Source of the DNA: a virus
Length of the DNA: 23,334 nucleotides
Direction: 5' to 3' (one strand)
UHGV virus genome: UHGV-0335559
Under the pieces are notes generated by a model, which did no database searches, was not told where the DNA came from, and saw only the letters and a list, made by a program, of their open reading frames with translations. Positions 1-22,260 of the stretch are shown piece by piece. The translations under genes and the position numbers were made by a program. The first letter of the stretch is position 1, and each line of letters opens with the position of its first letter.

Positions 1-300
1 CCCCGCGATCATGACGAAGTTGCCGCCGCCGATCTTCACGTCGCCGACCTCAACGACGGTGTCCTCCGGATGGAACTTGCGGTTGCAGCACTTGAAGGGC
101 TCGCTCACGCGCTTGACGCTGTCGACGATGCCGAGACTCGCGATCAGGTCCATGTCCACGTTGGTCGTGTCGCCGACGAGACCGAGCACGGTCTGATATT
201 CGCCCTCGGAAATGTGGATGACCAGCCCCTGAGCCTTGAGCCAGTCGATGAGCTGCGTGCGCTTTGCCGCTTCCACGCCATGTTTGAGTACGACGATCAT
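1..300 (-). CDS. Partial CDS (5' end only; continues beyond window start). First 100 residues resemble class I-beta DAHP/KDO8P synthase with an N-terminal ferredoxin-like regulatory domain
   Basis: Manual translation of the reverse complement of 1-300 gives MIVVLKHGVEAAKRTQLIDWLKAQGLVIHISEGEYQTVLGLVGDTTNVDMDLIASLGIVDSVKRVSEPFKCCNRKFHPEDTVVEVGDVKIGGGNFVMIAG. The FHPEDTV..GDVKIG.G.F.IAG block matches my recollection of the Thermotoga-type DAHPS N-terminus. ATG at 298-300 has a GGAGG Shine-Dalgarno 8 nt upstream. Not in the supplied ORF track because it is truncated by the window edge. Confidence 0.5.
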   Translation of the reverse strand, partial: MIVVLKHGVEAAKRTQLIDWLKAQGLVIHISEGEYQTVLGLVGDTTNVDMDLIASLGIVDSVKRVSEPFKCCNRKFHPEDTVVEVGDVKIGGGNFVMIAG

Positions 301-340
301 GATGATTACCTCCGATACAATGTTGCAGATTTCTTGGATA

Positions 341-380
341 TCAAAAAGAAAATGCGGCACAGGCTCAACCTGTGCCGCAT
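341..380 (-). terminator. Rho-independent terminator downstream of the tail fibre assembly gene
   Basis: Perfect 12-bp inverted repeat ATGCGGCACAGG (352-363) / CCTGTGCCGCAT (369-380) with a 5-nt loop. On the minus-strand RNA it is followed by a U-rich run (plus strand 341-351 AAAAAGAAAA). Confidence 0.6.
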
Positions 381-399
381 GAAAGCACCGCGCCGGACG

Positions 400-843
400 T
401 CATCTGGCCTGAACTGCCGGAGGCGTAGGCCATTCAATATCTGGCGCACCGGAAGTATCAACCAGTTCCAGTGCGTCCAGATAATCCAGCCATAAATTAT
501 ATTGTTCCAGCTCGTCACCTTTCAGACGACCAATAGCAGCTTTGCCAGGCCACTGATGGGTATTGATGTAGGTATTGACTTCTGAAACCAAAGATATTTT
601 TTTCATTTCAGCCGTCAACACCTCATCCTCTTTTGAAGGTGGTGGGGAATTAATCCATACTGGCCGTCCTGAACTGTCAGCGCCAATTTCTTTCCCTTCT
701 GGATGCAGACCAAGAAATTGCTCATATGTTTCTCTGGTAATTTCAATAACATCATCAGGAAGCGTTCCCGCATCCTCATATTCTGGAAACAATTCTTGCA
801 GATAAAAACTTTTACTCCCGGGTGAAAAGAATACTGAGTTCAT
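400..843 (-). CDS. G: Tail fibre assembly chaperone (P2 gpG-like)
   Basis: 147-aa ORF directly downstream of the tail fibre gene. C-terminal segment ...YNLWLDYLDALELVDTSGAPDIEWPTPP is typical of tail fibre assembly proteins. Position matches P2 gene order. Confidence 0.75.
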   Translation of the reverse strand: MNSVFFSPGSKSFYLQELFPEYEDAGTLPDDVIEITRETYEQFLGLHPEGKEIGADSSGRPVWINSPPPSKEDEVLTAEMKKISLVSEVNTYINTHQWPGKAAIGRLKGDELEQYNLWLDYLDALELVDTSGAPDIEWPTPPAVQAR

Positions 844-845
844 TC

Positions 846-2126
846 TTACCGTCCAATGATTAACGCTGAGACGCTGGTATCTGAAGGAAAGGCTGCATTC
901 AGTGGTTTGTCGACTTTGAATACAATCGTATTATTCCCCCTGACAGCGGCAAAAGAACAAACCGCCGTCGCGTATGAACCTGTAATATTACTGGATACAC
1001 CACCATAAGCTGTTGTTGAGACCAGAGGGATAACGCCCAGTACCTTATTAGGAAATACAAAGGGCAATGTGGCTGTGGCAATATAAGACTTATTAGAACC
1101 TGTAATGGCATAAGCATTATCAGTCATTCCATTCATCGCCACCGGGCCGCTTATACTTACAGTAACCATCTGAATGATTAGCCCGTCAGGTTGACGAATC
1201 ACAAAATTTCCATTGCCACCAGTAACCGTCCAGAAAGACATATCAGGGATTTGGTTTTCCCCGTTGCCCACATTCCGTTTTGCTGCTTCTCCCAAACCAA
1301 GGTATGCGAGAAGACCAGCTACATCCTTTCCACTCAAATGAGTCAGCGTCTCATCCAGTGGCTGCTTACCTGACAGCGCATTGTTAATGGTGGTGCTGAA
1401 TTTCGGGTCATTGTTAATGGCCGCGGCAATTTCTTTCAGTGTGTCCAGCGTGGCAGGCGCACCATTAATCAGAGCGGTAATAGCAGCCTGAACAAACGCA
1501 GTGGTCGCAATCCGCGTGGTGTTATTTCCTGCGGCAGGCGTCGGCGCTTTTGGTTCTCCGGTAAATGTCGGATTATGTTTCTGTGCATACTGGGTATGAG
1601 GATCCTGTGCGGCAATGTGGTTTCTCATCTGGTCATCCACATACAGCCTTAATTCCAGGACTTCATCATCCACGTATTTACGGGTCGCCAGTACCACCGA
1701 CGGGTCGATTTTCAGCGTGATGGCTTCGGTATTCGAGACAACCAGAATCATGCGGATAGTCTGGGTACGACCACTGCCTTCCTGCAACTGCGGTTTGTAC
1801 GTTTCCGGGCAGTTCGCCACCGCAATGAGTACGCCTTCATCATCATAAAGCCCAATCTCACGGATCCAGAATCCGCCCTCGTTCTCAGGGATGATTTGCT
1901 CCGCAATAATCTGGCTCTGGTTGTTCGGGTCAACACTCAGAAGATTCAGCGGCGCGATGCGTTTCTGGTTAATCAGTTTTGTCTGTGCCGGGTCTGGTGT
2001 CGGCAAGACACCATTCGCATCACCAACGGCCATTTGCGTCAGATTCAGCTTACTGCCGAGCATCGTCGCGTTAGCCAGCCGTGCAGCGCCCTGATTAGTC
2101 AGAATGGCGTAGTATTTCACTGTCAT
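846..2126 (-). CDS. H: Tail fibre protein (P2 gpH-like N-terminal domain, divergent C-terminal region)
   Basis: 426-aa ORF. N-terminus MTVKYYAILTNQGAARLANA...MAVGDANGVLP...GGFWIREIGLYDDEGVLIAVAN matches the conserved gpH N-terminal baseplate-attachment domain as I recall it. Overlaps the upstream I gene by 4 nt. Confidence 0.85.
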   Translation of the reverse strand: MTVKYYAILTNQGAARLANATMLGSKLNLTQMAVGDANGVLPTPDPAQTKLINQKRIAPLNLLSVDPNNQSQIIAEQIIPENEGGFWIREIGLYDDEGVLIAVANCPETYKPQLQEGSGRTQTIRMILVVSNTEAITLKIDPSVVLATRKYVDDEVLELRLYVDDQMRNHIAAQDPHTQYAQKHNPTFTGEPKAPTPAAGNNTTRIATTAFVQAAITALINGAPATLDTLKEIAAAINNDPKFSTTINNALSGKQPLDETLTHLSGKDVAGLLAYLGLGEAAKRNVGNGENQIPDMSFWTVTGGNGNFVIRQPDGLIIQMVTVSISGPVAMNGMTDNAYAITGSNKSYIATATLPFVFPNKVLGVIPLVSTTAYGGVSSNITGSYATAVCSFAAVRGNNTIVFKVDKPLNAAFPSDTSVSALIIGR

Positions 2127-2734
2127 GCGTTTACTCTCAGGTTATCAATTAAATGAATGGCCGAGGCCGGGAAATAATCCCCTCCGACAATAATGGCCTC
2201 CGGGGTGTAGGGATAAACCGTCAGGGCGTCGCCGTGATAGCATCCCGCACCGGCAAAAATGTTGCCGGTTGTACTTAAACTGATAGCCAGTCCCGTCAGA
2301 TGGCGGCTTGCCGGTTTTGCATCAGCAACGAGGCGCTCCAGCTCCTGATACATTTCCTCGGTAATACCCTGCTCAAGCACGCCAACAACGATACGGAACG
2401 TCCCCGGCTCCTCGTTGAGTTGCCACCACTCCCTCACCTCAATCAGATAGCCGAGCGGCTCCACCACACGGCGAATCGCACCAATAGTGCCCTTATGGCA
2501 GTGAATGAAATACGCATCGCGGATAACAGCGCGTTTTGTCGCTTCCGGCCACTTATCATCCCAGCGGTCAACCGAAAATGACCACGCCAGCCACGGCAGC
2601 AGATTTGCCGGACAGGTATCCGGGTTCCACAGCTCACGAATACTGACCGGCGTTTTTTCAATTTCCGCACAGGCTTTTGCGGCGGCGACCTCAAGCGGTG
2701 ATGAGCCGGTCGGCAGCAGTCGCGAATCACTCAT
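2123..2734 (-). CDS. I: Baseplate/tail protein gpI
   Basis: 203-aa ORF between J and H in P2 order. Overlaps J by 8 nt (translational coupling). Confidence 0.85.
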   Translation of the reverse strand: MSDSRLLPTGSSPLEVAAAKACAEIEKTPVSIRELWNPDTCPANLLPWLAWSFSVDRWDDKWPEATKRAVIRDAYFIHCHKGTIGAIRRVVEPLGYLIEVREWWQLNEEPGTFRIVVGVLEQGITEEMYQELERLVADAKPASRHLTGLAISLSTTGNIFAGAGCYHGDALTVYPYTPEAIIVGGDYFPASAIHLIDNLRVNA

Positions 2735-3635
2735 CCGAGCCTCCGGTCACGACACGGTATTCAGTACAGAAAGACGCCTGCGTACTGTTGAGCACGATGT
2801 CGGCCAGTGGTGCAGCCAGTTCGACACGCTGCACACCTTCCACATGCAAAGCGGCATAAATGGCAGACAGACGGATGTCACGCCCCAGCCGGTGCTGTGC
2901 CGTGATATACGCTTCCAGTTTTTTCACGGCGGCAGCGCGGATGGGTTCGCTTTCGGGACCAGGGTAAAGGTAAAGCGTGGCGTTTATCTGGTATTCAACA
3001 ATGGCGGCAGACTGCACAGTCACGCGGTCGGCCACCGGCCTGACGTCCTCGCCATTAAGGGCGTTACGCACCGCCGCCAGCAGGTCTTCGGATGCCACAC
3101 CGTTATTTTCACGTGACAGCACGGAGATGGTGACGCAGGCCGGAGACGGACTGGTGACAGAGATATCCGCGACACGCCCGTCGGCACTGCGACCATGATA
3201 CTGATAGGCTCCCACCGACCCGGCGACGCTTAAGCCTTCAAACGCCTGCTGAATACGCAGACGATAATCCGTGTCAGATTCCATCACTGCCGGTGTCGGC
3301 GGGATGGTCGAATCATCTGCCGGGGTGATAATCAGGCGCGTGGTGTTGTAATTGGCACCAATCACATCAAGGTCATTACCGGCGGCACAAGCCAGCATCA
3401 CCGCCCGTGCGGCCTCATTCACACGCTGACGCCAGATAAGCTCACGATAAGCATTTTCCTCCAGCAGTTTGACGAGAGGCTCCGATTCCAGCGTCAGGGT
3501 ACGGGCGACCGCCTCCTGCTGGTCTTCCGGGTAAAGGGAAATCAGTGTCGCCTTGCGTTCGGCAAGAATGGTTTCAAAGTCCAGCTCCTCGACCACATCC
3601 GGTGCGGGTAGCTGGTTCAGGTCGATAATCGGCAT
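2727..3635 (-). CDS. J: Baseplate assembly protein gpJ
   Basis: 302-aa ORF, same length as P2 gpJ as I recall it; position between W and I. Confidence 0.9.
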   Translation of the reverse strand: MPIIDLNQLPAPDVVEELDFETILAERKATLISLYPEDQQEAVARTLTLESEPLVKLLEENAYRELIWRQRVNEAARAVMLACAAGNDLDVIGANYNTTRLIITPADDSTIPPTPAVMESDTDYRLRIQQAFEGLSVAGSVGAYQYHGRSADGRVADISVTSPSPACVTISVLSRENNGVASEDLLAAVRNALNGEDVRPVADRVTVQSAAIVEYQINATLYLYPGPESEPIRAAAVKKLEAYITAQHRLGRDIRLSAIYAALHVEGVQRVELAAPLADIVLNSTQASFCTEYRVVTGGSDE

Positions 3636-3639
3636 GGTT

Positions 3640-3987
3640 TCAACTCATAGGGATGGTTAACGAAAGTGGCTGGCCGGTGTCGTTGTGCTGACCGGTTAAC
3701 GTGACCGTCATTCGCCCGTCAAAACTGCGCGCCGTGGTGACGGATGACAGGGTGACGCGGGGTTCCCATTTCAGCACGGCCATGTAACAGGCGACCTTAA
3801 TCTGCAACTCAAGCGCCGGGGTCTGCGGCTGGTCAATCATTGACGCCAGCAACGAGCCGTAATCACGACGCATCACCCGTGAGCCGACCGGTGTGCGCAG
3901 GATATCGCCGATACTCTGGCTGATATGCTCAAGGTCAGTGACAGTCAGGCCATCACTGCGATTCATTCCGAGATAACGCGCTGTCAT
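3640..3987 (-). CDS. W: Baseplate protein gpW (GPW/gp25 family)
   Basis: 115-aa ORF, length and position match P2 gpW. Confidence 0.9.
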   Translation of the reverse strand: MTARYLGMNRSDGLTVTDLEHISQSIGDILRTPVGSRVMRRDYGSLLASMIDQPQTPALELQIKVACYMAVLKWEPRVTLSSVTTARSFDGRMTVTLTGQHNDTGQPLSLTIPMS

Positions 3988-4619
3988 AGAGGACTCCCGG
4001 TTGTGCCGCCGCTGTCGCCGGGGTGTTTATGGGTATGCAGTACCTTACCGTTTGATGAGAGTTCACCGCCGGTGTGTTCAATGTTGCCGCGCATCGTCCC
4101 GCCCTTCTGCACTTCCAGCGTGCCGGTAATCAGCCTGTTGGTGCAGACCACCTCCGGTGTGTCCAGGGTGATGCGGGTTGATGCTTTCACCATGACCATC
4201 GGCACCGTGGCAGTAACAGAATCAGAAGCCGTCACGCTGGCCGTTTTAATTCCGCTTACCGTGAGTGCACTGGTTTCGGGTTCATACTCAATCACCGCCC
4301 CGTCAGGGAAACGGATATGCAGGGCATCCGCCGACGCAGACGGCGCGTGGTTATCGCCGGAATAAATCCCCGGCAGAACGAATGCCGTGTCGAGTTCACC
4401 GCCCACGGCCAGAATCAGCACCTGTTCCCCCACGGAAGGTGCCCACCATGTGCGCGAACGACCGGCGCGATGGGTCAGCCACTGAAGCCAGTCGGTGCAC
4501 ATGCCGCCGGTCTGCACACGGCAGCGACCGGCGTTAAGGTCGGTTTCGACGATAATGCCGGTGCGGATCATGTTACGCAGTGCGCGCGCGAGTTCCTGAA
4601 TATTTGCGAGAGTGTTCAT
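3984..4619 (-). CDS. V: Baseplate spike/assembly protein gpV
   Basis: 211-aa ORF, length and position match P2 gpV; overlaps W by 4 nt. Confidence 0.9.
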   Translation of the reverse strand: MNTLANIQELARALRNMIRTGIIVETDLNAGRCRVQTGGMCTDWLQWLTHRAGRSRTWWAPSVGEQVLILAVGGELDTAFVLPGIYSGDNHAPSASADALHIRFPDGAVIEYEPETSALTVSGIKTASVTASDSVTATVPMVMVKASTRITLDTPEVVCTNRLITGTLEVQKGGTMRGNIEHTGGELSSNGKVLHTHKHPGDSGGTTGSPL

Positions 4620-4685
4620 AACGGGAAGGATGCCGCCGGGTCATACCGGCGGCAATGTGACGATGAGGTGTCAGGAATGGCACAA

Positions 4686-5138
4686 CTAACGGTCGAGGTG
4701 AGCCAGAATAATCTCTTCAATCATCTGCACATCCTCACCGGTAAAGCCGAGCAGAGGACGCGCCGGATAATCAATTTTCTTACCGTCTTTCCGGTTTTCT
4801 TCCGACAGACCGAACTGATGCACGCTGGCGATTTTCGGTGACTTCCCGCCGTAAAACTCCATTGATGCCTGTTCCGGGCTGGCGCGGATATGCAAAAAAC
4901 GACTGGTGATAAGTTTCGCAAACATTTTTCGCTTAACACGACCAGTCTTTTTTCTGGCGCTCTGCTGCTGGCGTGGCGCGTAGGGTGTACCGTCCGGGGC
5001 TTTCTGAGCCATCACCCGACGCTGCTGACTCTGCCGCAGACGTTTCGCCAGTTCGGCACTCAGTCGCCGACGCCCTGACGGTGACAGCGACTCAATCAGT
5101 CCGGTCAGCCGGTCTTCAAAACGCTTAAACTCATTCAT
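4686..5138 (-). CDS. S: Tail completion / virion morphogenesis protein gpS
   Basis: 150-aa ORF downstream of R; length and order match P2. Confidence 0.85.
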   Translation of the reverse strand: MNEFKRFEDRLTGLIESLSPSGRRRLSAELAKRLRQSQQRRVMAQKAPDGTPYAPRQQQSARKKTGRVKRKMFAKLITSRFLHIRASPEQASMEFYGGKSPKIASVHQFGLSEENRKDGKKIDYPARPLLGFTGEDVQMIEEIILAHLDR

Positions 5139-5598
5139 CCCACTTGCTCACCAGTTCGCCATTGATATAAAGCTTCATCGGGCGGGTGACCGGCTCCGGC
5201 GGCGTGGGTTCCGGGATATTCTTCACATGCAGCGCGCCGTCCACCTCACTGACCAGCGTGCGTTCGGTCAGCATCAGGCTGATGCTGATATCAAAGCTGC
5301 TGTCATTGTTGATGTCTGCATAAAACGTGAAGCCCTTTTTCTGGCCTTCGTCGGTGGTCATGATGTCGGGCTGATTTTCCCGCAGCCACGCCAGCACCGG
5401 CACGATGAGCAGGTCAAAATCACCGGTAAAGTCGGTCACAATCACATTGAGCGTGTAACGCTTTTCGAATGACAGCGACGTCGCCAGTGTGGAGGCAATA
5501 CTCCCGTTATCCACGAATATCCGCAGCATCTCTGGACTGGTTTTCAGCACCGTGACGGCATCAGTCAGCGCCCTGCGCAGGCTGTCGGGTTTGAGCAT
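5131..5598 (-). CDS. R: Tail completion protein gpR
   Basis: 155-aa ORF; length and order match P2 gpR; overlaps S by 8 nt. Confidence 0.85.
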   Translation of the reverse strand: MLKPDSLRRALTDAVTVLKTSPEMLRIFVDNGSIASTLATSLSFEKRYTLNVIVTDFTGDFDLLIVPVLAWLRENQPDIMTTDEGQKKGFTFYADINNDSSFDISISLMLTERTLVSEVDGALHVKNIPEPTPPEPVTRPMKLYINGELVSKWDE

Positions 5599-5851
5599 CG
5601 TTTTCGTCCTGACAGTGTTTAATCATTTTTACCTGGCTGGCACAGCGTGCCAGCGCGTTCTCAAGCTGCCGGATATCGGCACTTAAATCGCCGTTCGTCT
5701 CCGGGTCACTGCCCGGCATCGGGCAAAGACTCACTTTCGGGCAGGCGTTGGCGACAATCACTGGCGTCAGTGCAGGCCGGACGCTGGTGCAACCGGCGCA
5801 CAGCATCAGGCAGGTCAGCGCCGTACCAGCGGCGAAAATCTTCGTTTTCAT
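5561..5851 (-). CDS. lysC: Outer-membrane spanin lipoprotein (LysC/Rz1-like), embedded out of frame in lysB and running into R
   Basis: Internal Met of the 109-aa ORF gives MKTKIFAAGTALTCLMLCAGC..., a signal peptide with lipobox cysteine, followed by a Pro-rich mature part. 96 aa, as I recall for P2 LysC. Start chosen at the internal Met, not the ORF-track start. Confidence 0.7.
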   Translation of the reverse strand: MKTKIFAAGTALTCLMLCAGCTSVRPALTPVIVANACPKVSLCPMPGSDPETNGDLSADIRQLENALARCASQVKMIKHCQDENDAQTRQPAQGAD

Positions 5852-6131
5852 TAAGTAACCTCGTGATGGTTTTCTCGCGCTGTGCTTCACGCTTCGCGGC
5901 GTTCTCCAGTTCCTGACGCAGTGCTACCTGCGCCAGCTCGTTTTTGTCTGCCCTGGTGAGGGCAACATGAAGCTGATTTTTCAGCATGGTGATGGTCGTC
6001 TGCTGCCCGTTGGCGACGTTGCTCGCCCTGTCCAGTGAGGTGCGCAGGCTGGCGTTTTCATGCTTCGCCAGAAACAGACCGGCCACCGCCAGTGATAACA
6101 ACACAACCAGCACAATCATCAGCTTTGACAT
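5706..6131 (-). CDS. lysB: Inner-membrane spanin (LysB/Rz-like)
   Basis: 141-aa ORF with N-terminal TM segment (MSKLMIVLVVLLSLAVAGLFLA) and a coiled-coil-like, charged remainder. Position after lysA. Confidence 0.8.
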   Translation of the reverse strand: MSKLMIVLVVLLSLAVAGLFLAKHENASLRTSLDRASNVANGQQTTITMLKNQLHVALTRADKNELAQVALRQELENAAKREAQREKTITRLLNENEDFRRWYGADLPDAVRRLHQRPACTDASDCRQRLPESESLPDAGQ

Positions 6132-6544
6132 GGTTCCCGCCCCTCAAAACGCTGACGACAGGCCGTGCGTATCAGCCGGAAGAACACCGACGCCACGAGG
6201 TAAATCAGCGCGGTAAAAATCCACCCGGCAGCGACCAGCGAGATAAACGTCGCCACCATCACCACCAGAGCCGCCGCCCGTCTGCGCCACGGCACCGGCT
6301 GCAAAAACAGCGACGCGACAATCTTCACGGCCAGCGATTCCGGCGGCAGCTCCCGCCCGTAGCGTTCCAGCACATACTCAGTGGCATACACGCCGACACC
6401 ACCGGCAACCACACAGATAACCGTCGCCAGAATCGCCCAGGCGGCGACAAAATTGACGGCCACGCTCTGCGGGTAAATCAGGGACAGTGCCAGCATCAGC
6501 GCCAGCGACACGTTCAGCATCAGTGAAAGGGATAATTTCTTCAT
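6119..6544 (-). CDS. lysA: LysA membrane protein (lysis timing/holin-associated)
   Basis: 141-aa ORF with several hydrophobic segments; sits between K and lysB as in P2. Confidence 0.75.
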   Translation of the reverse strand: MKKLSLSLMLNVSLALMLALSLIYPQSVAVNFVAAWAILATVICVVAGGVGVYATEYVLERYGRELPPESLAVKIVASLFLQPVPWRRRAAALVVMVATFISLVAAGWIFTALIYLVASVFFRLIRTACRQRFEGREPCQS

Positions 6545-6558
6545 GGTGTTTACTCCGT

Positions 6559-7056
6559 TTAAGCCGGTACGCCGCCAGCGGTACGCCAGACGGTGACCAG
6601 TTTTTCCAGTGAATGCTCACGCTGACCGTAACCGGCACCCGGCAGGGACGCCCAGATATTGCGACAGCGTGAAATGGCGCGCTCAATGCGTCCCGCCCGG
6701 ATGTCATCCAGTGCACCGCGTTCGCGGATCAACTGAATGGCGAGTCTGTCCTGTGACAACGGGCTGAAATCAGGCAGGGCAAGCTGTTTACGGTAGTGCG
6801 GCCAGAACAGGTAAAGCTGCTGATAGCGACCGGAGGCCGTGGATTTTTCACCGCGACGGTTAAACACCTTCGCCGGTCGGCCATGTGCGAACGGGTGGTC
6901 ACTGTAGTCGGTGAAAATTTCCGGCTTTCCGTCCAGTCCGGTGACTATCACGTCATAGCCCCGGTTTTTCGTCAGCGGATGATTCGCCGTCCCTTCGGAC
7001 ACGGCCAGCATGTCGAGAAAGGCGGCGATATTCTGATGCGTGTTAATTACCGGCAT
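6559..7056 (-). CDS. K: Endolysin (lysozyme-like, P2 gpK)
   Basis: 165-aa ORF MPVINTHQNIAAFLDMLAVSEGT...; phage lysozyme-like N-terminus. Its start overlaps the stop of the holin gene. Confidence 0.9.
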   Translation of the reverse strand: MPVINTHQNIAAFLDMLAVSEGTANHPLTKNRGYDVIVTGLDGKPEIFTDYSDHPFAHGRPAKVFNRRGEKSTASGRYQQLYLFWPHYRKQLALPDFSPLSQDRLAIQLIRERGALDDIRAGRIERAISRCRNIWASLPGAGYGQREHSLEKLVTVWRTAGGVPA

Positions 7057-7337
7057 TACGGTTTCCCCCTGCCCTTAAAACGGCGCTGAATGGCAATCTC
7101 AATCACCTGATAGCCGGCGATACCCAGCATGGAGCCGATGCCGCACACCGCAGGCAGTGACAGGTCAGGAAACTGCACCAGAACAACACCGGCAACCATC
7201 GAGACAAAACCACCGAGCAACATGCGCCCGATAAACAGACGCGGGGTGATGGGTTCACCACCGGCAAGCACCTTGCCGACAACAATCAGCACCCCAATCA
7301 TGAAAAGCGACAGGACGCTTTTTTCTTCTGCTGTCAT
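7056..7337 (-). CDS. Y: Holin (P2 gpY)
   Basis: 93-aa ORF with hydrophobic TM segments and a charged C-terminus; immediately upstream of the endolysin gene. Confidence 0.85.
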   Translation of the reverse strand: MTAEEKSVLSLFMIGVLIVVGKVLAGGEPITPRLFIGRMLLGGFVSMVAGVVLVQFPDLSLPAVCGIGSMLGIAGYQVIEIAIQRRFKGRGKP

Positions 7338-7340
7338 GCG

Positions 7341-7544
7341 TTACTCCCACAGATTGACAGTTTCAGCCACGGGCGCGGTCTGAACGTCGGGCAGTTCGAC
7401 GGCGGTGCCGTGCGGCAGCACCGCACCCAGTTCAGCCAGTCCCGGATTTGCGGCGAGCACGGCCTCGACCACGCCCTCAGTGCGCCCGTAATACCGGACA
7501 CAGATGGCGTCGAGCGTGTCGCCCTGTAGCGCAAAGGTCTTCAT
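7341..7544 (-). CDS. X: Tail protein gpX (LysM-like)
   Basis: Internal start MKTFALQGDTLDAICVRYYGRTEGVV... gives 67 aa. The ATG overlaps the L stop by 1 nt (ATGA). The longer ORF-track start at 7613 was not used. Confidence 0.85.
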   Translation of the reverse strand: MKTFALQGDTLDAICVRYYGRTEGVVEAVLAANPGLAELGAVLPHGTAVELPDVQTAPVAETVNLWE

Positions 7545-8053
7545 CAGATTTGACTCACAATGCAGCGCGGCTTGTCCTGGATTCGCGCCACTGCCCAGCG
7601 CATATCCCGCCACAGCTCATCAATGGTGCTGTCAATGCTGTCGGCCTTCTTGTCGCCTTTCGCACTGGCATCCACGCCGCGATAACGCTCATAAAGCGAT
7701 GCGGTCGCCATCGCACACACGGCGCGCTCGTAGTAAAAAACTTTGATGCTTTCACCGTCGATGTCGTCCGCCGGGACGTCCGCCAGACGCGTAAAACCGG
7801 CGGCAATTTTCTGTTCGCGGTACTCGTACAGCTCCGCATTCGTCTCCGCCATGCCTGACTTGATGGCCTCACGCAGACGGGCGGGGGCGACGGTCTGCTC
7901 AAGGCGCATACGTTCCCGGACGCGCTTCGGGTCGATATCGGGAAAAAAGAACGTGTTTTTAATCACCGGCTCGTCGCCTGCCGGTTGCGGGATGACCACC
8001 GTACCCTCACCGGACACGGGAGCCTCCTTTCGCGGAATAATCAGCGTCATCAT
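7544..8053 (-). CDS. L: Head completion protein gpL
   Basis: Internal start MMTLIIPRKEAPVSGEGT... gives 169 aa, matching P2 gpL as I recall it. The longer ORF-track start at 8113 was not used. Confidence 0.85.
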   Translation of the reverse strand: MMTLIIPRKEAPVSGEGTVVIPQPAGDEPVIKNTFFFPDIDPKRVRERMRLEQTVAPARLREAIKSGMAETNAELYEYREQKIAAGFTRLADVPADDIDGESIKVFYYERAVCAMATASLYERYRGVDASAKGDKKADSIDSTIDELWRDMRWAVARIQDKPRCIVSQI

Positions 8054-8152
8054 GACTACCTCTGAAAAGTCGGGCGGTGGACGCCGGTGCAGTGTCAGGT
8101 GATTCACCGTCACTGACCGGCGTGCCGCCCTGGCGCGGGGCGCATTCGGTTG

Positions 8153-8896
8153 TTAACTGGCTTTCTTTTTCGGGCGTCCACGTTTTGCCGGTGTCACGCT
8201 CCGGGTCTTACGCGGGGCGCGGGGGGACGCTTTGGGCTGCGGCTCCGGCTTCGGTTTCATCTCCCGCTCCAGTCGTTCAATCTCTTTTTTGACGCCTGCC
8301 TGACAGTCGAGCTGTGTCGCACGTTGCAGGTGCGCCAGCGCACCGGCGGCATCACCACCGTCACGCAGAAACAGACCGGTGATTTTGTGCAGCTTTGCGC
8401 GCACTTCATCAGGCATGTCAGCCGTGGCAGTCAGTTCAAGGGTGTCCGTCAGCAGGCGGGTATCCACAGACTCACCGGCAGCGTGGGCGCGCATGGCCGC
8501 AAGTGCCACCTCCTCGGTGAACATGTACGGCGGGGTACGGCGGTGTTTACCCGGCATGGTCAGACCGTATTTCAGGGCATAACGGGCAATCTCCAGCGCA
8601 CCGGCAATATCGCCGGTATCCAGACGCCACAGCATGACCGTCATCAGAATGTCATCCTGTGCACCTTTGCCCTGCTCCAGCACGCCGTTCACCCACGGCA
8701 ACCAGAACGGCAGCAGTTCGCGTTTTTTCGCGGCTTTCAGCTCTTTTGAATAAATCGCTTTCAGTGTGCGCTGGTCTGCGGCCAGCTTGACCAGCATCTG
8801 CTCATAGACAGTTGCATGTCGCAGCGGGGCGGCTTCCCGCTGCGCGGTCATCGCTGCCGAGACCCGCATCATGTGGCGCTGTGCGGGACTCGTCAT
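8153..8896 (-). CDS. M: Terminase endonuclease (small) subunit gpM
   Basis: 247-aa ORF; sequence (MTSPAQRHMMRVSAAMTAQREA...) is very close to P2 gpM as I recall it, with a basic C-terminal tail. Confidence 0.9.
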   Translation of the reverse strand: MTSPAQRHMMRVSAAMTAQREAAPLRHATVYEQMLVKLAADQRTLKAIYSKELKAAKKRELLPFWLPWVNGVLEQGKGAQDDILMTVMLWRLDTGDIAGALEIARYALKYGLTMPGKHRRTPPYMFTEEVALAAMRAHAAGESVDTRLLTDTLELTATADMPDEVRAKLHKITGLFLRDGGDAAGALAHLQRATQLDCQAGVKKEIERLEREMKPKPEPQPKASPRAPRKTRSVTPAKRGRPKKKAS

Positions 8897-8899
8897 CGG

Positions 8900-9973
8900 T
8901 TACGCTCCCGGCTCTGCGGTCGCTTTAGCCGGTGTGGAGAAATCACCGACCTTAATTTTTTCCACCAGACAACCGGCGGCGTAGTCTTCCACCACGTAAT
9001 CAATGTTCATTGACTCGTAGTTCTCCACGCGGTCGAGTTTCGGGTTTTCCTCAATCACGCGGCGATGGCTGTCATCCATGTAGTAGATGGACAGGTTTTC
9101 CAGCTTCGTGATGAGCATCGCATCTGCCGGGAAGTACGGGACGCGCACTGCCGGCAGGTTACCGATGCGTTTCTGGCTGATGATGACGTCAGCGGCCAGC
9201 ATTTCGCTGTTGTCCTGCTCCCTGTTGACGATGGGGAAATACTTGTCCGCCAGTAGCTGACGCCCCACAATCACCACAAGGTCAGGGTCTTCCTGATACC
9301 ACGGCTCAATCAGGTTGTTGGTCGCATCCATCACCAGTGCATCGAGGCTGGCATAATCACCGCCCTTACCCACGCGGATGACCTCAGAGGTCGTGTGACC
9401 TTCCTCGTCAGTAACCTTGCTCATCACGCGCGCCGGGGCTTCATTGCGGTATTTCTGCAGCCAGCCGACCGCCACATCCTGCAGCATCTGGTTACTGCTG
9501 CGGTCAGAGGTTTCGGCACGCCTCACGCCGTTAAAACCGGCCATGATTAAATCAAGGGACTGGCGTTTGATAATGGCGTTACGGACACGGAGCTGGAAAT
9601 CCTGATAACGCGCCCACAGGTCCAGCGTTTTGTAGCGGATATAAAAATCGAAGTTAATCTGGTCGCATTCGTACTTGTTTGACGCCAGCTTCGAGAAGTC
9701 CTTCGGCTGACGCTCGGTGCCACCGGCGGTGTCGGTGGTGCTGGCGATGGAGCCGGTGACACCGATGCCAATTTTTTCCCCTTTCATTTCGCTGACCGGC
9801 ACAATATTGATGCGGGTCAGAAAGTCAGAGGACTCCTGCATGGTGTTCATCAGGGTCTGGGTGACCGACGGTTCAACGGTGAATTTTTTCGACACATCAC
9901 CGGCGTCGATGCCGTTCAGTTCGGCAACACGGGACAGGTAGGCATTAAATTTAAAGCGGGTTTCCTGGCGCAT
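8900..9973 (-). CDS. N: Major capsid protein gpN
   Basis: 357-aa ORF, length and position match P2 gpN. Confidence 0.9.
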   Translation of the reverse strand: MRQETRFKFNAYLSRVAELNGIDAGDVSKKFTVEPSVTQTLMNTMQESSDFLTRINIVPVSEMKGEKIGIGVTGSIASTTDTAGGTERQPKDFSKLASNKYECDQINFDFYIRYKTLDLWARYQDFQLRVRNAIIKRQSLDLIMAGFNGVRRAETSDRSSNQMLQDVAVGWLQKYRNEAPARVMSKVTDEEGHTTSEVIRVGKGGDYASLDALVMDATNNLIEPWYQEDPDLVVIVGRQLLADKYFPIVNREQDNSEMLAADVIISQKRIGNLPAVRVPYFPADAMLITKLENLSIYYMDDSHRRVIEENPKLDRVENYESMNIDYVVEDYAAGCLVEKIKVGDFSTPAKATAEPGA

Positions 9974-16256: not shown

Positions 16257-16490
16257 TTAATGCAGCCAGCTATCGTCCTCCCATACCTGCTGCATGATTT
16301 CCATTACTCGTTTTTTATCTTCGTCCAGTTTCAAACCGCTTAGTTCAACGCCATTAGCGGAGCCCTTGCGAATTCGGATAGCAGTCTTTGGGTAAATAGG
16401 TTGAAGATTGCGGTACAGTTCAGCCTCAAGTGCATCCAATGTTGCCTGACTAATTTTTTGCTCTTTATCCAACGTGATATTGATTCTCAT
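16257..16490 (-). CDS. DinI-like protein (DinI / 186 Tum C-terminal domain family)
   Basis: 77 aa, MRINITLDKEQKISQATLDALEAELYRNLQPIYP...VMEIMQQVWEDDSWLH; resembles E. coli DinI (MRIEVTIAK...ALAGELSRRIQ...) in pattern and length. Weak Shine-Dalgarno; the ATG is one codon after the in-frame stop of the upstream ORF. Confidence 0.75.
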   Translation of the reverse strand: MRINITLDKEQKISQATLDALEAELYRNLQPIYPKTAIRIRKGSANGVELSGLKLDEDKKRVMEIMQQVWEDDSWLH

Positions 16491-16493
16491 AAT

Positions 16494-16676
16494 CTAATCA
16501 GCCTTATAAAAATTATCATCTTCGGTTTCGTTATTTTCGCTGTTTGCTAGGTCTGCAATGAGAGTGAGCGCGAGCTTTAAGTCTGATGGCTTGCAGTTTG
16601 CAATCAGAGATACCTCGGCAATAAATTGCACACAAGCCCACTTTTGCTGCGTTCGGCTGAAATGTTCGCCAACCAT
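16494..16676 (-). CDS. Small protein, possible N-terminal (antirepressor) part of a Tum-like protein
   Basis: 60-aa ORF with strong Shine-Dalgarno (GGGAGGG) and a LexA box just upstream. Same reading frame as the DinI-like ORF, separated from it by a single TAG. Confidence 0.5.
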   Translation of the reverse strand: MVGEHFSRTQQKWACVQFIAEVSLIANCKPSDLKLALTLIADLANSENNETEDDNFYKAD

Positions 16677-16695: not shown

Positions 16696-16715
16696 TACTG
16701 TATATTTATACAGTA
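16696..16715. promoter_or_regulatory. LexA box (SOS operator) overlapping the promoter of the tum/DinI-like operon
   Basis: TACTGTATATTTATACAGTA: CTGT (16698-16701), 8 nt, ACAG (16710-16713), one central mismatch to the consensus TACTGTATATATATACAGTA. Lies about 20 nt upstream of the start codon at 16676. Confidence 0.75.
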
Positions 16716-20039: not shown

Positions 20040-20549
20040 TCAAATCAGACCAAACGATGCGCCAATACCGCTCATGGTATCGACCACGCTCGACATAGCT
20101 GGATTAGTCTGCAGACGTGCATGCAGCGCCAGAGCCGACAATGACAACATGCGAATGCCGGAGTTAACGCTTTCAATCATGTTGTGCTTACGGGCAGTGG
20201 TCAGACGTTCATCAGATACCGCGCCGCTCGCCAGTTCGCCGAGTTCACGCATCGCGCGCATGACATAAGACTGCAATTTGTCTTTAGCCAACTCATTAAC
20301 CGGCACGCATGGTAGGCAGTGAATCTGCGCTAAAAAACCATCAATGAGGGTTGAGTCTTCGGTCAGGTCAGTCAGCAGCCACAATTCAGGCGGCGTGAAC
20401 TGGTGAGGCTGTTCCGGGTTGAGCTTGTTACGTAACGTTTGAACGTTCATACCTGCACGCTCGGCCAGCTTCGCCATGTTGTGACGCTGTGCGAAAATGC
20501 GGCATGCTTCGTCATAGTGGGGATGTTTGGAAACCTGAAAATCAAACAT
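20040..20549 (-). CDS. cII: CII-like HTH transcriptional activator (lysogeny establishment, 186 type)
   Basis: Start set at MFDFQVSKHPHYDEACRIFAQRHNMAKLAERAGMNVQTLRNKL... with GAGGG upstream. Resembles the 186 CII N-terminus as I recall it. Follows the apl-like gene, as in 186. Confidence 0.7.
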   Translation of the reverse strand: MFDFQVSKHPHYDEACRIFAQRHNMAKLAERAGMNVQTLRNKLNPEQPHQFTPPELWLLTDLTEDSTLIDGFLAQIHCLPCVPVNELAKDKLQSYVMRAMRELGELASGAVSDERLTTARKHNMIESVNSGIRMLSLSALALHARLQTNPAMSSVVDTMSGIGASFGLI

Positions 20550-20581
20550 GGTTAAATTCCCTCTAACTTGCATAATCAAAT

Positions 20582-20953
20582 TCAGTTAAGAGCGGTGCGC
20601 TGGTCGATGTAGCGACAATCAATCGCTTGTTGAGTCAGCTTATCGCGCCATGCTTTTACATTTACGAGGGTTCGGCTTCGTTTAGCAGCTTCCTCTTTGT
20701 TGGAAAAGTCTTTGGTCGGAGCTTTGAGAAGGACTCCCTCATCGAGCCATTGCCAGACCAGACGCTCGCTAACACCGCGAGTAGCGGCGAAGTCTTTCAC
20801 AGTCATCGTGTCTGACATAGCGGAGCGAATCATTGTCTGTAGAGCTGGCAGCATGGCGGTAACGATGGCATCAAACTGTGTTGGGTCTAGCAGCACAGTT
20901 TGATTTTGTGAGTTTTGCGAGTCGTGCGTCGAGATTGATTTTGCATCTGACAT
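20582..20953 (-). CDS. Apl/Cox-like excisionase and lytic-switch regulator; start codon uncertain
   Basis: HTH-like core TVKDFAATRGVSERLVWQWLDEGVLLKAP; first gene of the early operon facing cI. The ATG at 20953 has an AGGAGA Shine-Dalgarno, but internal starts would give a protein of 78-90 aa, closer to the size I recall for Apl. Confidence 0.55.
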   Translation of the reverse strand: MSDAKSISTHDSQNSQNQTVLLDPTQFDAIVTAMLPALQTMIRSAMSDTMTVKDFAATRGVSERLVWQWLDEGVLLKAPTKDFSNKEEAAKRSRTLVNVKAWRDKLTQQAIDCRYIDQRTALN

Positions 20954-21066
20954 ATCGCATTATCTCCTGTTGTTTGAAATGTAGTGCAGTGGTGTGCATC
21001 TTGGTCGGTGAGCACCAATATAGATCGCTAAATTTTGGTTGTAAACAAAATTCTTGTTGGTGTCAT
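20954..21066. promoter_or_regulatory. Immunity switch region (lytic/lysogenic promoters and operators)
   Basis: Intergenic region between the divergent apl-like and cI-like genes. Contains TTGAAA (20974-20979) and the dyad TTGGT-N8-ACCAA (21001-21018), plus a further TTGGT half-site near 21055. Promoter assignment not resolved. Confidence 0.4.
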
Positions 21067-21912
21067 ATGTCTAAAAATGATGTTAATGCGTCTGCCGCAT
21101 TGGAACGTGTCCTTTCTGCATACGGCTTTAAGCAGCAAAAGGAACTAGCCGAAAGGCTTGGCATACATGCAAACAACGTGAGTAGCTGGCTTGCTAGAAA
21201 CGTAATCCCTAGCAACGTTTTCGTTGAGTGTGCTCTTGATACTGGAGCTGACCTGCGATGGCTAATTAATGGTGAGCTTGCAAATGCAAGATTTGAAGTG
21301 GTGAAAACTAAGCTTAAAGGTAAGCAACTCTATGATGAAATCATGGCAAATGGAGGGAGGGCGGTTCTGCGTCGGATTCTCGATGCGTATGGTTTTACTC
21401 TGCAAAAAGAGCTTGGAGATTTATTAGGTATATCTTCCGGCACTATAAGCACTTGGGTTAGACGCGATTTTTTCCCCGGTGACGTGGTTGTCACTTGCGC
21501 CCTTGATACTGGCGTATCGTTAGAATGGTTATCAACCGGAAAAGGCCAGATGCGTAACAGTAATGATGGTGAACCGGCAAATGCTTTAACGATTAGAAAG
21601 TGCCGCCTCGAGGCTGGCGAACTCAAAGATATCGGACGCTGGACTCCTGATATATCTATGGTTCCATCAAATACTGATGATTTAGTGTTTATTGATGGTG
21701 TGAGCACATCTTGGCTTGTTGATAGTTCTAACTCGAAGATAGGAAATGGTCGCTGGCTTATTGGTATTGATGGCGCACTCGATGTTTTTGACGTAATCAG
21801 GTTGCCAGGCGGAAAGGTAAGGTTATCAAATAAGTCTGCTGAGTTTGAATGTAATATTTCAGATATCACACCATCAGGTGCGGTTATTTTTACTTTGGAA
21901 AAGCATGTTTAA
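21067..21912 (+). CDS. cI: CI-type immunity repressor with tandemly duplicated N-terminal HTH domain
   Basis: Start set at MSKNDVNASAALERVLSAYGF... (281 aa). Two homologous ~85-aa repeats (...AYGFKQQKELAERLGI...CALDTGADLRWLINGE / ...AYGFTLQKELGDLLGI...CALDTGVSLEWLSTGK), then a C-terminal domain (...RLPGGKVRLSNKSAEFECNISDI...) resembling the 186 CI C-terminal domain as I recall it. Confidence 0.75.
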   Translation: MSKNDVNASAALERVLSAYGFKQQKELAERLGIHANNVSSWLARNVIPSNVFVECALDTGADLRWLINGELANARFEVVKTKLKGKQLYDEIMANGGRAVLRRILDAYGFTLQKELGDLLGISSGTISTWVRRDFFPGDVVVTCALDTGVSLEWLSTGKGQMRNSNDGEPANALTIRKCRLEAGELKDIGRWTPDISMVPSNTDDLVFIDGVSTSWLVDSSNSKIGNGRWLIGIDGALDVFDVIRLPGGKVRLSNKSAEFECNISDITPSGAVIFTLEKHV

Positions 21913-21921
21913 GGAGCAGTA

Positions 21922-22260
21922 ATGAAAAAGTTTATATTTGCGATAGTCTGCATTGCACTTTCTTCCTCAGCCATAGCCGCTGAGAAGTTTAAAGAGATAG
22001 ACGGCGCTGCATATGGTGACAAGTGGCCTCTAACCTTTGAAAAGGCAAAGGTATCATGTGTTAACCGTGCTTATGCTTTTGTGTATGACATCAAAACTGA
22101 TGATAGATATCCTCTGAATGGCATGGCGGTAGATGCTGTTAAATCAGGAAAGCTGGAGGGGTCTAACTTAGATGACGTATGGAAGGATGACCCTGAGTAT
22201 GACGGCGTTAAAATTTCAATTTCACCGGTGATTGATGCCGCTACAGCCCTTTGTAATTAA
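21922..22260 (+). CDS. Small secreted protein (112 aa) between cI and int; possible lysogenic-conversion gene
   Basis: AAGGAG Shine-Dalgarno 7 nt upstream; N-terminal signal peptide MKKFIFAIVCIALSSSAIAAEKF; one Cys near each end of the mature part. Confidence 0.6.
   Translation: MKKFIFAIVCIALSSSAIAAEKFKEIDGAAYGDKWPLTFEKAKVSCVNRAYAFVYDIKTDDRYPLNGMAVDAVKSGKLEGSNLDDVWKDDPEYDGVKISISPVIDAATALCN

Follow-up and report, generated by a model that had tools for sequence, protein, structure and literature searches.

We have analysed the repressor gene cI in the 23,334 nucleotides of viral genome UHGV-0335559 (the whole stretch is called the window below), a region that belongs to a PSP3-like (Eganvirus; 186-like, P2-family) prophage of Escherichia coli. 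The gene occupies the position expected of a repressor in a lysis/lysogeny switch: it is divergent from cII and from a gene in the position of apl, and it lies upstream of int. This is also the gene order of coliphage 186, with cII and the apl-position gene on one strand and cI and int on the other. A first-pass annotation, made from the sequence alone, had proposed that the N-terminal DNA-binding domain of this repressor is duplicated in tandem. We find that the two helix-turn-helix (HTH) domains, HTH1 and HTH2, have evolved very unequally, and that they rather probably serve two different classes of operator. The features of the locus are collected in Table 1.

The cI reading frame is open throughout and its product has 281 amino acids, compared with 192 for 186 CI (the first-pass annotation gave about 190). 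Pfam finds family PF07022 (Phage_CI_repr) in two separate stretches of the protein (E 1.5e-47) and PF16452 (Phage_CI_C) at residues 176–269 (E 4.6e-19). When the two halves are compared by BLASTP, residues 10–70 align with residues 98–158 without a gap, with 31 of 61 positions identical (51%, E 1e-23). The similarity of the repeats is therefore significant, with the first interval exactly as proposed and the second lying three residues away from the 95–155 given in the annotation. AlphaFold2 likewise predicts two separate five-helix domains (pLDDT about 85–90), connected by a tether that is disordered at residues 72–83 and followed, after a second floppy linker at residues 161–171, by a beta-rich C-terminal domain. 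In Foldseek the latter superposes on the C-terminal domain of 186 CI (PDB 2FKD) with a TM score of 0.88 and a root-mean-square deviation of 1.7 Å, so that the single 186-CI-like C-terminal domain envisaged by the first-pass annotation is also upheld. The alignment with the 186 CI structure 2FJR is confined to residues 100–274, that is, to HTH2 and the C-terminal domain. As 186 CI has 192 residues and is covered by this part alone, the window protein amounts to a full 186-type CI to which a further HTH domain has been added at the N-terminus. It thus shares its HTH family and its C-terminal fold with 186 CI, but has two HTH domains per monomer where 186 CI has one, which makes it a variant architecture within the family. 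There is no Pfam match to Peptidase_S24 in CI, and the C-terminal domain of LexA is just a distant fold resemblance (Foldseek E about 1e-4). A search for an in-register DNA repeat between the two HTH segments found none; the duplication is visible in the protein only, and must therefore be old.

Table 1. Coordinates of the cI gene, its domains, the putative control sites and the neighbouring genes in the window
Feature	Position	Strand	Remarks
cI gene, PSP3-type double-HTH immunity repressor	21067..21912	+	281 aa plus stop
HTH1, residues 9–69	21091..21273	+	variable Phage_CI_repr copy; putative immunity-specificity head
Inter-HTH linker, residues 70–97	21274..21357	+	72–83 disordered, 85–95 helix
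HTH2, residues 98–158	21358..21540	+	highly conserved copy
186-type CI C-terminal (oligomerisation) domain, residues 176–281	21592..21909	+	
Perfect 14-bp palindrome CTTGCAAATGCAAG (CTTGCA-N2-TGCAAG)	21277..21290		in cI codons L71–A74; putative intragenic operator
22-bp palindrome AATTTTGGTTGTAAACAAAATT	21031..21052		centred on pR -35; within the DNA block covarying with HTH1
Predicted lytic promoter pR	21017..21045	-	-35 TTTACA 21045..21040, 17-bp spacer, -10 TATATT 21022..21017; promoter scan
Candidate weak pL (cI maintenance promoter)	20935..20963	+	TTGATT-17-CATTAT; by eye, missed by scan
FR-like degenerate palindrome copy CTTGCATAATCAAA	20567..20580		between apl-like stop and cII start
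Apl/Cox-position gene, first gene of pR operon	20582..20953	-	123 aa; no Pfam or NCBIfam family; PMC3448106
cII (Phage_CP76)	20040..20549	-	
DUF2511 gene	21922-22260	+	apparent signal peptide MKKFIFAIVCIALSSSAIAAE; between cI and int in lysogenic operon
tumA homologue	16494..16676	-	60 aa; SOS-controlled antirepressor expected to inactivate window CI
Perfect LexA box CTGTATATTTATACAG	16698..16713		upstream of tumA and dinI-like gene
DinI-family gene	16257..16490	-	

The first-pass annotation treated the gene as unusual, and in this it was mistaken: in PSP3-type (Eganvirus) phages such a repressor is standard, and it is common in Enterobacteriaceae. The same gene is present at 99% DNA identity or more in 17 complete E. 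coli genomes. The nearly identical region of E. coli MB06232 places the prophage between rplS and yfiB, with A, a DksA-like gene, DUF2732, DUF5347, fil, cII and the apl-position gene on one strand and cI, DUF2511 and int on the other. Among cultured phages, a continuous double-HTH cI with the same flanking genes is found in the Salmonella phage PSP3 (NP_958086, 286 amino acids), SW9, SI22, SEN1 and Midge, at 67–92% identity (91.5% for the Salmonella phages SW9 and SI22, 73% for PSP3 and 67% for the E. coli phage Midge). More than 100 protein clusters of 276–289 amino acids have this architecture, in many enterobacterial genera including Escherichia, Salmonella, Klebsiella, Enterobacter, Citrobacter, Cronobacter and Kosakonia, and the PSP3-type CI occurs in hundreds of enterobacterial prophages. 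The window protein has every feature of this informal group: the order HTH1, linker, HTH2, C-terminal domain; a length between 276 and 289 residues; the HTH2 helix SSGTISTWVRRDFFPGDVV; and linker codons that contain a palindrome. Both single- and double-HTH repressors exist among related prophages, as a survey of the kind suggested with the annotation makes clear: in the 150 best matches among 50%-identity representatives, plus five reference CIs, 73 proteins have one HTH and the C-terminal domain, and 17, including the window CI and three reference phage CIs, have two. Two further proteins (P0224 and P0252) were considered as multi-head CIs and rejected, their many-stretch matches being generic HTH_3 arrays.

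The architecture is thus known but unremarked; its sequences have been publicly available since the deposition of PSP3, annotated simply as CI. We found no description of the HTH duplication in PSP3-type CI in the accessible literature, and the sole comparative paper we found on the length of PSP3 CI ascribes the extra length to a "longer C-terminal domain" (PMC3448106). A double-HTH CI is not modelled in NCBIfam, and PHROGs has a generic repressor family only. What appears to be new here are the inferences that the heads evolve asymmetrically, that there are two classes of operator, and that an operator is embedded in the linker codons.

Unequal evolution of the two heads

Averaged over the pairs in an alignment of 26 homologues, identity is 62% in HTH1, 90% in HTH2 and 68% in the C-terminal domain. 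The same picture emerges when eight representative genes are compared by Nei-Gojobori counts, with ratios of nonsynonymous to synonymous differences (pN/pS) of 0.33, 0.09 and 0.22 and pN values of 0.26, 0.07 and 0.16, respectively, while pS is about 0.78, saturated and nearly equal in all three domains. As pS is equally saturated throughout and pN is low, HTH2 must be held by strong purifying selection and does not owe its uniformity to recent recombination. It retains the full HTH signature of PF07022. HTH1 is also under constraint, with 15 invariant core residues, and its variation is found mainly in and around the recognition helix.

The variation in HTH1 is matched in the adjoining DNA. 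The predicted pR, a sigma-70-type promoter that reads into the apl-position gene, is the counterpart of 186 pR, and its position is conserved in relatives. We compared 84 loci, comprising the window, PSP3, SW9, Midge and 80 viral contigs. Roughly 50 bp, between the approximate start site of pR and the cI ATG, fall into groups that match the groups of HTH1 recognition helices, and the left half of the intergenic region is essentially identical throughout. SW9 and SI22 belong to the immunity type of the window; PSP3 and Midge differ from it both in the HTH1 recognition helix and in the pR-proximal DNA, and represent other immunity types. An additional 78 more distant double-HTH loci contain at least 15 types of HTH1 helix, and in these loci the HTH2 helix is essentially constant (IS[ST]GT[IV]STW[VI]RR.[YF]FPGD). 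Covariation of this kind between HTH1 and pR is the pattern expected of an immunity cassette.

The best candidate for an HTH1-specific operator of the window immunity type is the 22-bp palindrome AATTTTGGTTGTAAACAAAATT. Several other immunity types have a 12–14-bp palindrome in the 17-bp spacer of pR, with the same layout and another spelling (ATCGCAAATGCGAT, ATCCAAATGGAT, CACAAATGTG and CACAATTGTG), and in the immunity type YANNISSWLARD the promoter has TTGCAATGGCAA between AT-rich inverted arms. In 186 the lytic and lysogenic promoters face each other, and a pL of the window would do likewise. The sole candidate is weak, but it faces pR, has the same position relative to the apl-like start as pL of 186, and overlaps TTGCATCTGACA (20941–20952), which has two mismatches to the palindrome described below.

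A palindrome kept in the linker codons

Just after HTH1, the cI gene contains a perfect 14-bp palindrome. Its 12-bp core TTGCANNTGCAA occurs as a perfect copy once in the window, at 21278–21289. In the E. coli relative MB06232, PSP3 and SW9 there are exactly two perfect copies each, one at the same place in cI and the other between ogr and D, where it overlaps the -35 element of a good ogr promoter (TTGCAA, 16–17 bp, TATTAT); Midge has one perfect copy, at ogr. These four cover three different HTH1 types, and palindromes in cI and at ogr are likewise the rule in the Eganvirus repressor group of PSP3, SW9, SI22, SEN1 and Midge, of which the window gene is a member.

Selection on this palindrome is at the level of DNA. 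It is kept in cI with at most one mismatch in 81 of the 84 loci. The codons CTT GCA AAT GCA are nearly fixed at synonymous positions (a minority has GCG or TCA as the last codon), and the Gly, Glu, Val and Leu codons around them vary freely. Midge-type genes have lost the site at its usual position and rebuilt it 9 bp downstream in another reading frame, and in other lineages the peptide ANA has changed to AFA in a way that preserves the palindrome, with the spacer AA becoming TT. It is the fixed synonymous positions, the rebuilding out of frame and the ANA-to-AFA change that lead us to this conclusion. In one viral contig (L119) the palindrome is expanded to TTTGCAAATGCAAATGCAAATGCAAATG, which encodes FANANANAN, so that the operator looks multiplied within the coding sequence.

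The positions of the palindromes mirror those of repressor sites in 186, for which the annotated CI sites are pR, FL (inside cI), FR (between apl and cII) and pB. The copy in cI corresponds to FL and the copy at the ogr -35 element of the relatives to pB, the late-activator promoter, while the degenerate copy CTTGCATAATCAAA, conserved across relatives, has the position of FR. As far as sequence can tell, the distal sites of a 186-type switch are thus represented in the window and, for the ogr site, in its relatives. The consensus is different: ATTCAC-N5-GTGAAT (17 bp) in 186 versus CTTGCA-N2-TGCAAG (14 bp) in the PSP3 type. In 186, FL and FR assist repression of pR and modulate pL (PMC3675496), and the single HTH of 186 CI reportedly binds two distinct recognition sequences (Shearwin et al. 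2002, as cited in PMC3675496).

Single-domain relatives suggest where the palindrome came from. Prophages of Rahnella and Ewingella encode a CI of 196 amino acids (P0132) that has the same C-terminal domain as the window protein and lacks HTH1. For P0135, a further single-domain relative, the search brought up double-domain relatives but not the P0135 locus itself. The sole HTH of P0132 is 79% identical to HTH2 of the window, with an HTH2-type helix (SSGTISTWVRR[ND]YFPGDVV). In these prophages CTTGCATTTGCAAG lies in non-coding DNA, 53 nt upstream of the cI ATG, and the divergent minus-strand promoter reads TTGACA-A-CTTGCAAATGCAAG-TT-TAGATT, so that the palindrome fills the spacer between -35 and -10. 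We considered the Apl-like protein and CII as readers of the palindrome and think both unlikely: no apl-like or cII gene is present in the region read upstream of cI at the Rahnella locus, and these proteins therefore cannot be the readers there. The promoter of Rahnella and Ewingella is the strongest, though indirect, evidence from which we infer that an HTH2-type domain recognises the palindrome. Ten loci with the HTH2 helix GTMSAW have altered sites at the same place, such as CTTAAAAATGTAAG (CTTAAA..TGTAAG), a weak covariation that is confounded by shared ancestry. In Rahnella victoriana (L087, 3372–4591) the genes that diverge directly from cI are a small DUF5347-like one, a DksA-like one and replication gene A, with neither apl nor cII in between, a stripped-down switch of the 186/P2 type.

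The palindrome of the single-domain genes and that of the double-domain genes are in the same position relative to the following HTH. Of 17 single-domain loci in which a site can be recognised, 16 have 191 nt between the palindrome and the [FY]FPG[DE] codons. In double-domain genes the commonest spacing is again 191 nt (47 of 81 and 22 of 60), and MAFFT puts the two sets of palindromes in the same alignment columns. In other words, the linker palindrome of the double-domain genes stands where the single-domain genes have their pR operator. In the protein the repeat recurs after 88 residues, which corresponds to 264 nt. This period and the 191-nt distance are most simply read as the outcome of a tandem duplication, probably of about 264 nt, that took in the ancestral pR operator, its leader and everything up to the end of the HTH. 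The old leader would then have been read through, so that the linker between the heads (residues 70–97) would derive from the leader and the N-terminus of an ancestor with one domain, and its operator would now be coding DNA; the upstream copy of the operator would have diverged jointly with HTH1 into many immunity types, and the downstream copy would have stayed unchanged together with HTH2. On this comparison, the single-domain CI of Rahnella and Ewingella appears to represent the state before the duplication, or one closely akin to it. The nearest relatives of HTH1 outside its own class are HTH2-type domains (51% identity, versus 36–38% to 186 or 4LV2017).

Tandem HTH domains seem to have arisen at least three times in the 186-type CI family. 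The CI of Klebsiella phage 4LV2017 (313 amino acids) and the P0180/P0194 group also have two PF07022 domains and PF16452. In a neighbour-joining tree and in pairwise comparisons of the HTH domains, their heads pair with each other or with those of other single-domain CIs (62–84% identity) and not with the domains of the window protein (21–51%), which speaks for independent origins. In 4LV2017 (L005, 2402–2805) the motif GTTCAC, comparable with the 186 half-site ATTCAC, is found just upstream of cI and twice in the DNA of the inter-HTH linker, with a spacing of about 21–23 bp. This hints that an operator was captured in the linker there too; three of the five copies of the motif cluster in the linker region, an enrichment that is not significant overall (17 of 200 shuffles reach it).

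Which head may read which operator

Our best reading, to which we lean without great confidence, is that HTH1 reads the immunity-specific operators at pR and HTH2 reads the ancestral operator class. Each class would consist of symmetric sites read by a pair of like domains: pairs of HTH1 would bind the operators over pR, and the palindromes common to the group, within cI, close to cII and in the ogr promoter, would be occupied by pairs of HTH2. Dimerisation, and possibly higher assembly, would be the task of the 186-type C-terminal domain. With its four heads, a CI dimer could bind at pR and at a distal palindrome simultaneously, and so bridge pR and the distal sites that lie 242 and 468 bp from it. 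In this way CI would repress pR and ogr, a task that 186 CI performs with a single head, and induction would proceed through the LexA-controlled antirepressor TumA. More tentatively, and with odds that we would put a little below even, the duplicated HTH has been subfunctionalised, one copy being a swappable immunity cassette with its own pR operators and the other a pan-group head for the shared ogr and intragenic operators.

One alternative, the closest to what the first-pass annotation had in mind, is a single-chain dimer, in which both heads of one monomer sit side by side on a composite operator and take one half-site each, the monomer thereby doing the work of a 186 CI dimer. Two HTHs per polypeptide have been engineered in single-chain 434 repressors, where the covalently linked DNA-binding domains are both on one operator; the window CI, by contrast, is a natural protein whose heads appear to serve different operator classes. 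A flexible tether of about 16–28 residues, as modelled, could permit such an arrangement, and the pR of the YANNISSWLARD type, with TTGCAATGGCAA inside AT-rich inverted arms, resembles an inner HTH2-type site with outer type-specific arms. However, the conserved sites are symmetric palindromes, which fit two like heads and not HTH1 plus HTH2; the TTGCA half-site is absent from pR in most immunity types; and the recognisable type-specific elements at pR are palindromes themselves. We therefore consider the single-chain dimer unlikely. The same evidence bears on the expectation in the first-pass annotation that a second HTH would alter operator layout and immunity specificity: the covariation of HTH1 with pR agrees with its direction, but in place of adjacent half-sites for each monomer the data suggest two symmetric operator classes. 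Even less credible is the idea that HTH1 is a decaying or regulatory appendage that does not bind DNA, all operators being bound by HTH2. HTH1 does evolve faster, and HTH2 with the C-terminal domain is by itself a complete 186-type CI, but HTH1 is under purifying selection (pN/pS 0.33, with the invariant core described above), its variation is concentrated in the region of the recognition helix and tracks the pR DNA, and, as most types have no HTH2-type palindrome at pR, this promoter would be left unrepressed. That the double domain is an artefact, with a frameshift or an error in sequencing or assembly having joined two neighbouring genes, is next to inconceivable; we checked for this, and the comparative data refute it, since the reading frame is continuous and of the same length in many independent genomes and in the phages PSP3, SW9, SI22, SEN1 and Midge.

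HTH2 in its turn could be a structural spacer or a docking surface for TumA, with HTH1 as the sole operator-binding head and the palindrome read by another conserved factor. TumA is 98–100% identical in ten out of ten PSP3-type phage records whatever the HTH1 type, so its target in CI must be conserved, and HTH2 is the most conserved part of CI. Against this, the palindrome is a promoter-spacer operator in prophages whose CI has an HTH2-type head only and where the region read upstream of cI contains no apl-like or cII gene, the full HTH signature is retained in HTH2, and the GTMSAW variants have altered sites, although this covariation is weak and confounded by lineage. Docking of TumA and reading of DNA are, moreover, not mutually exclusive. 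We judge a non-reading HTH2 improbable, to much the same degree as the single-chain dimer.

Several considerations nevertheless speak against assigning separate operator classes to the two heads. The assignment of heads to sites is drawn from conservation and covariation, and the covariation of HTH1 with pR may in part be linkage, as the operator and HTH1 are adjacent. The conservation of HTH2 could instead reflect binding of the nearly invariant TumA. A 6-2-6 palindrome like that of other immunity types was sought in the pR spacer of the window type and not found, leaving just the 22-bp palindrome over the -35 element. The ogr site is known from close relatives only, the ogr end of the prophage falling outside the window. 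AlphaFold2 gives no confident placement of the domains relative to each other (predicted TM score 0.44–0.45 for the full protein and for residues 1–165), and the tree of HTH domains, a neighbour-joining tree on 61 residues, is indicative only.

Neighbouring genes and the possible meaning of two heads

In 186, induction is by a LexA-controlled antirepressor of the Tum type, and the SOS module of the window, with its perfect LexA box and tumA homologue, would be expected to act in this way. The single tum gene of 186 has a split counterpart here, tumA and a dinI-like gene, and a tblastn search at E 1e-3 did not detect TumA in 186. In PSP3, tumA reportedly encodes the antirepressor (PMC3121763). 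The near-identity of TumA across HTH1 types indicates that its target is probably a conserved part of CI, possibly HTH2.

The protein in the position of Apl is unrelated to 186 Apl. It matches phrog_3554, of unknown function, and weakly resembles Cox-like excisionases over residues 47–109 (E 8e-5); its PSP3 counterpart was a singleton in a 2011 survey. The 5' part of its gene contains an inverted repeat, ATCAAACTGTGTTG / CAGCACAGTTTGAT (20870–20904), and two copies of AG(T/A)TTGATTTTG 35 bp apart (20897–20908 and 20932–20943), the second of which, together with its flank, shows no or almost no change in the few related phages compared. These repeats may be bound by the Apl-position protein or belong to the control of pL. 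At the start of cII and the stop of the apl-like gene (20540–20589) lie the direct repeats AATCAAACATGGTTAA and AATCAAATTCAGTTAA, 34 bp apart, in the region where 186 has pE and the CII site; they are a possible CII-binding site, and the second of them overlaps the FR-like palindrome.

The DUF2511 gene is also present in PSP3, SW9 and Midge and not in 186, and is likely a lysogenic-conversion (moron) gene. The prophage of MB06232 is degraded, with capsid and tail-assembly pseudogenes fused by a deletion (L001, 8663–9464); the window aligns to it from 9417 onward only, and window positions 1–9417 contain additional long open reading frames, presumably late genes.

CI of 186 serves as a model of the coordination of several promoters by one repressor that wraps and loops DNA, and it has long been noted as odd that its single HTH reads two different operator sequences. 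The PSP3-type CI may show another solution, namely two heads with one operator class each. If so, a single dimer could bridge two different operators, and immunity types would diversify by exchanging just HTH1 and about 50 bp of pR DNA, while the distal sites around the genome would stay fixed. The old operator would survive as codons of the linker between the heads, a record of the route of duplication, and the gene would be a worked example of how domain duplication captures a regulatory site into coding sequence. A resident prophage should then partly exclude heteroimmune phages of the PSP3 type, with HTH2 shutting their ogr promoters, so that cross-repression of late genes is predicted between heteroimmune relatives. 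A repressor of this design would also be a natural scaffold for two-specificity repressors in synthetic circuits.

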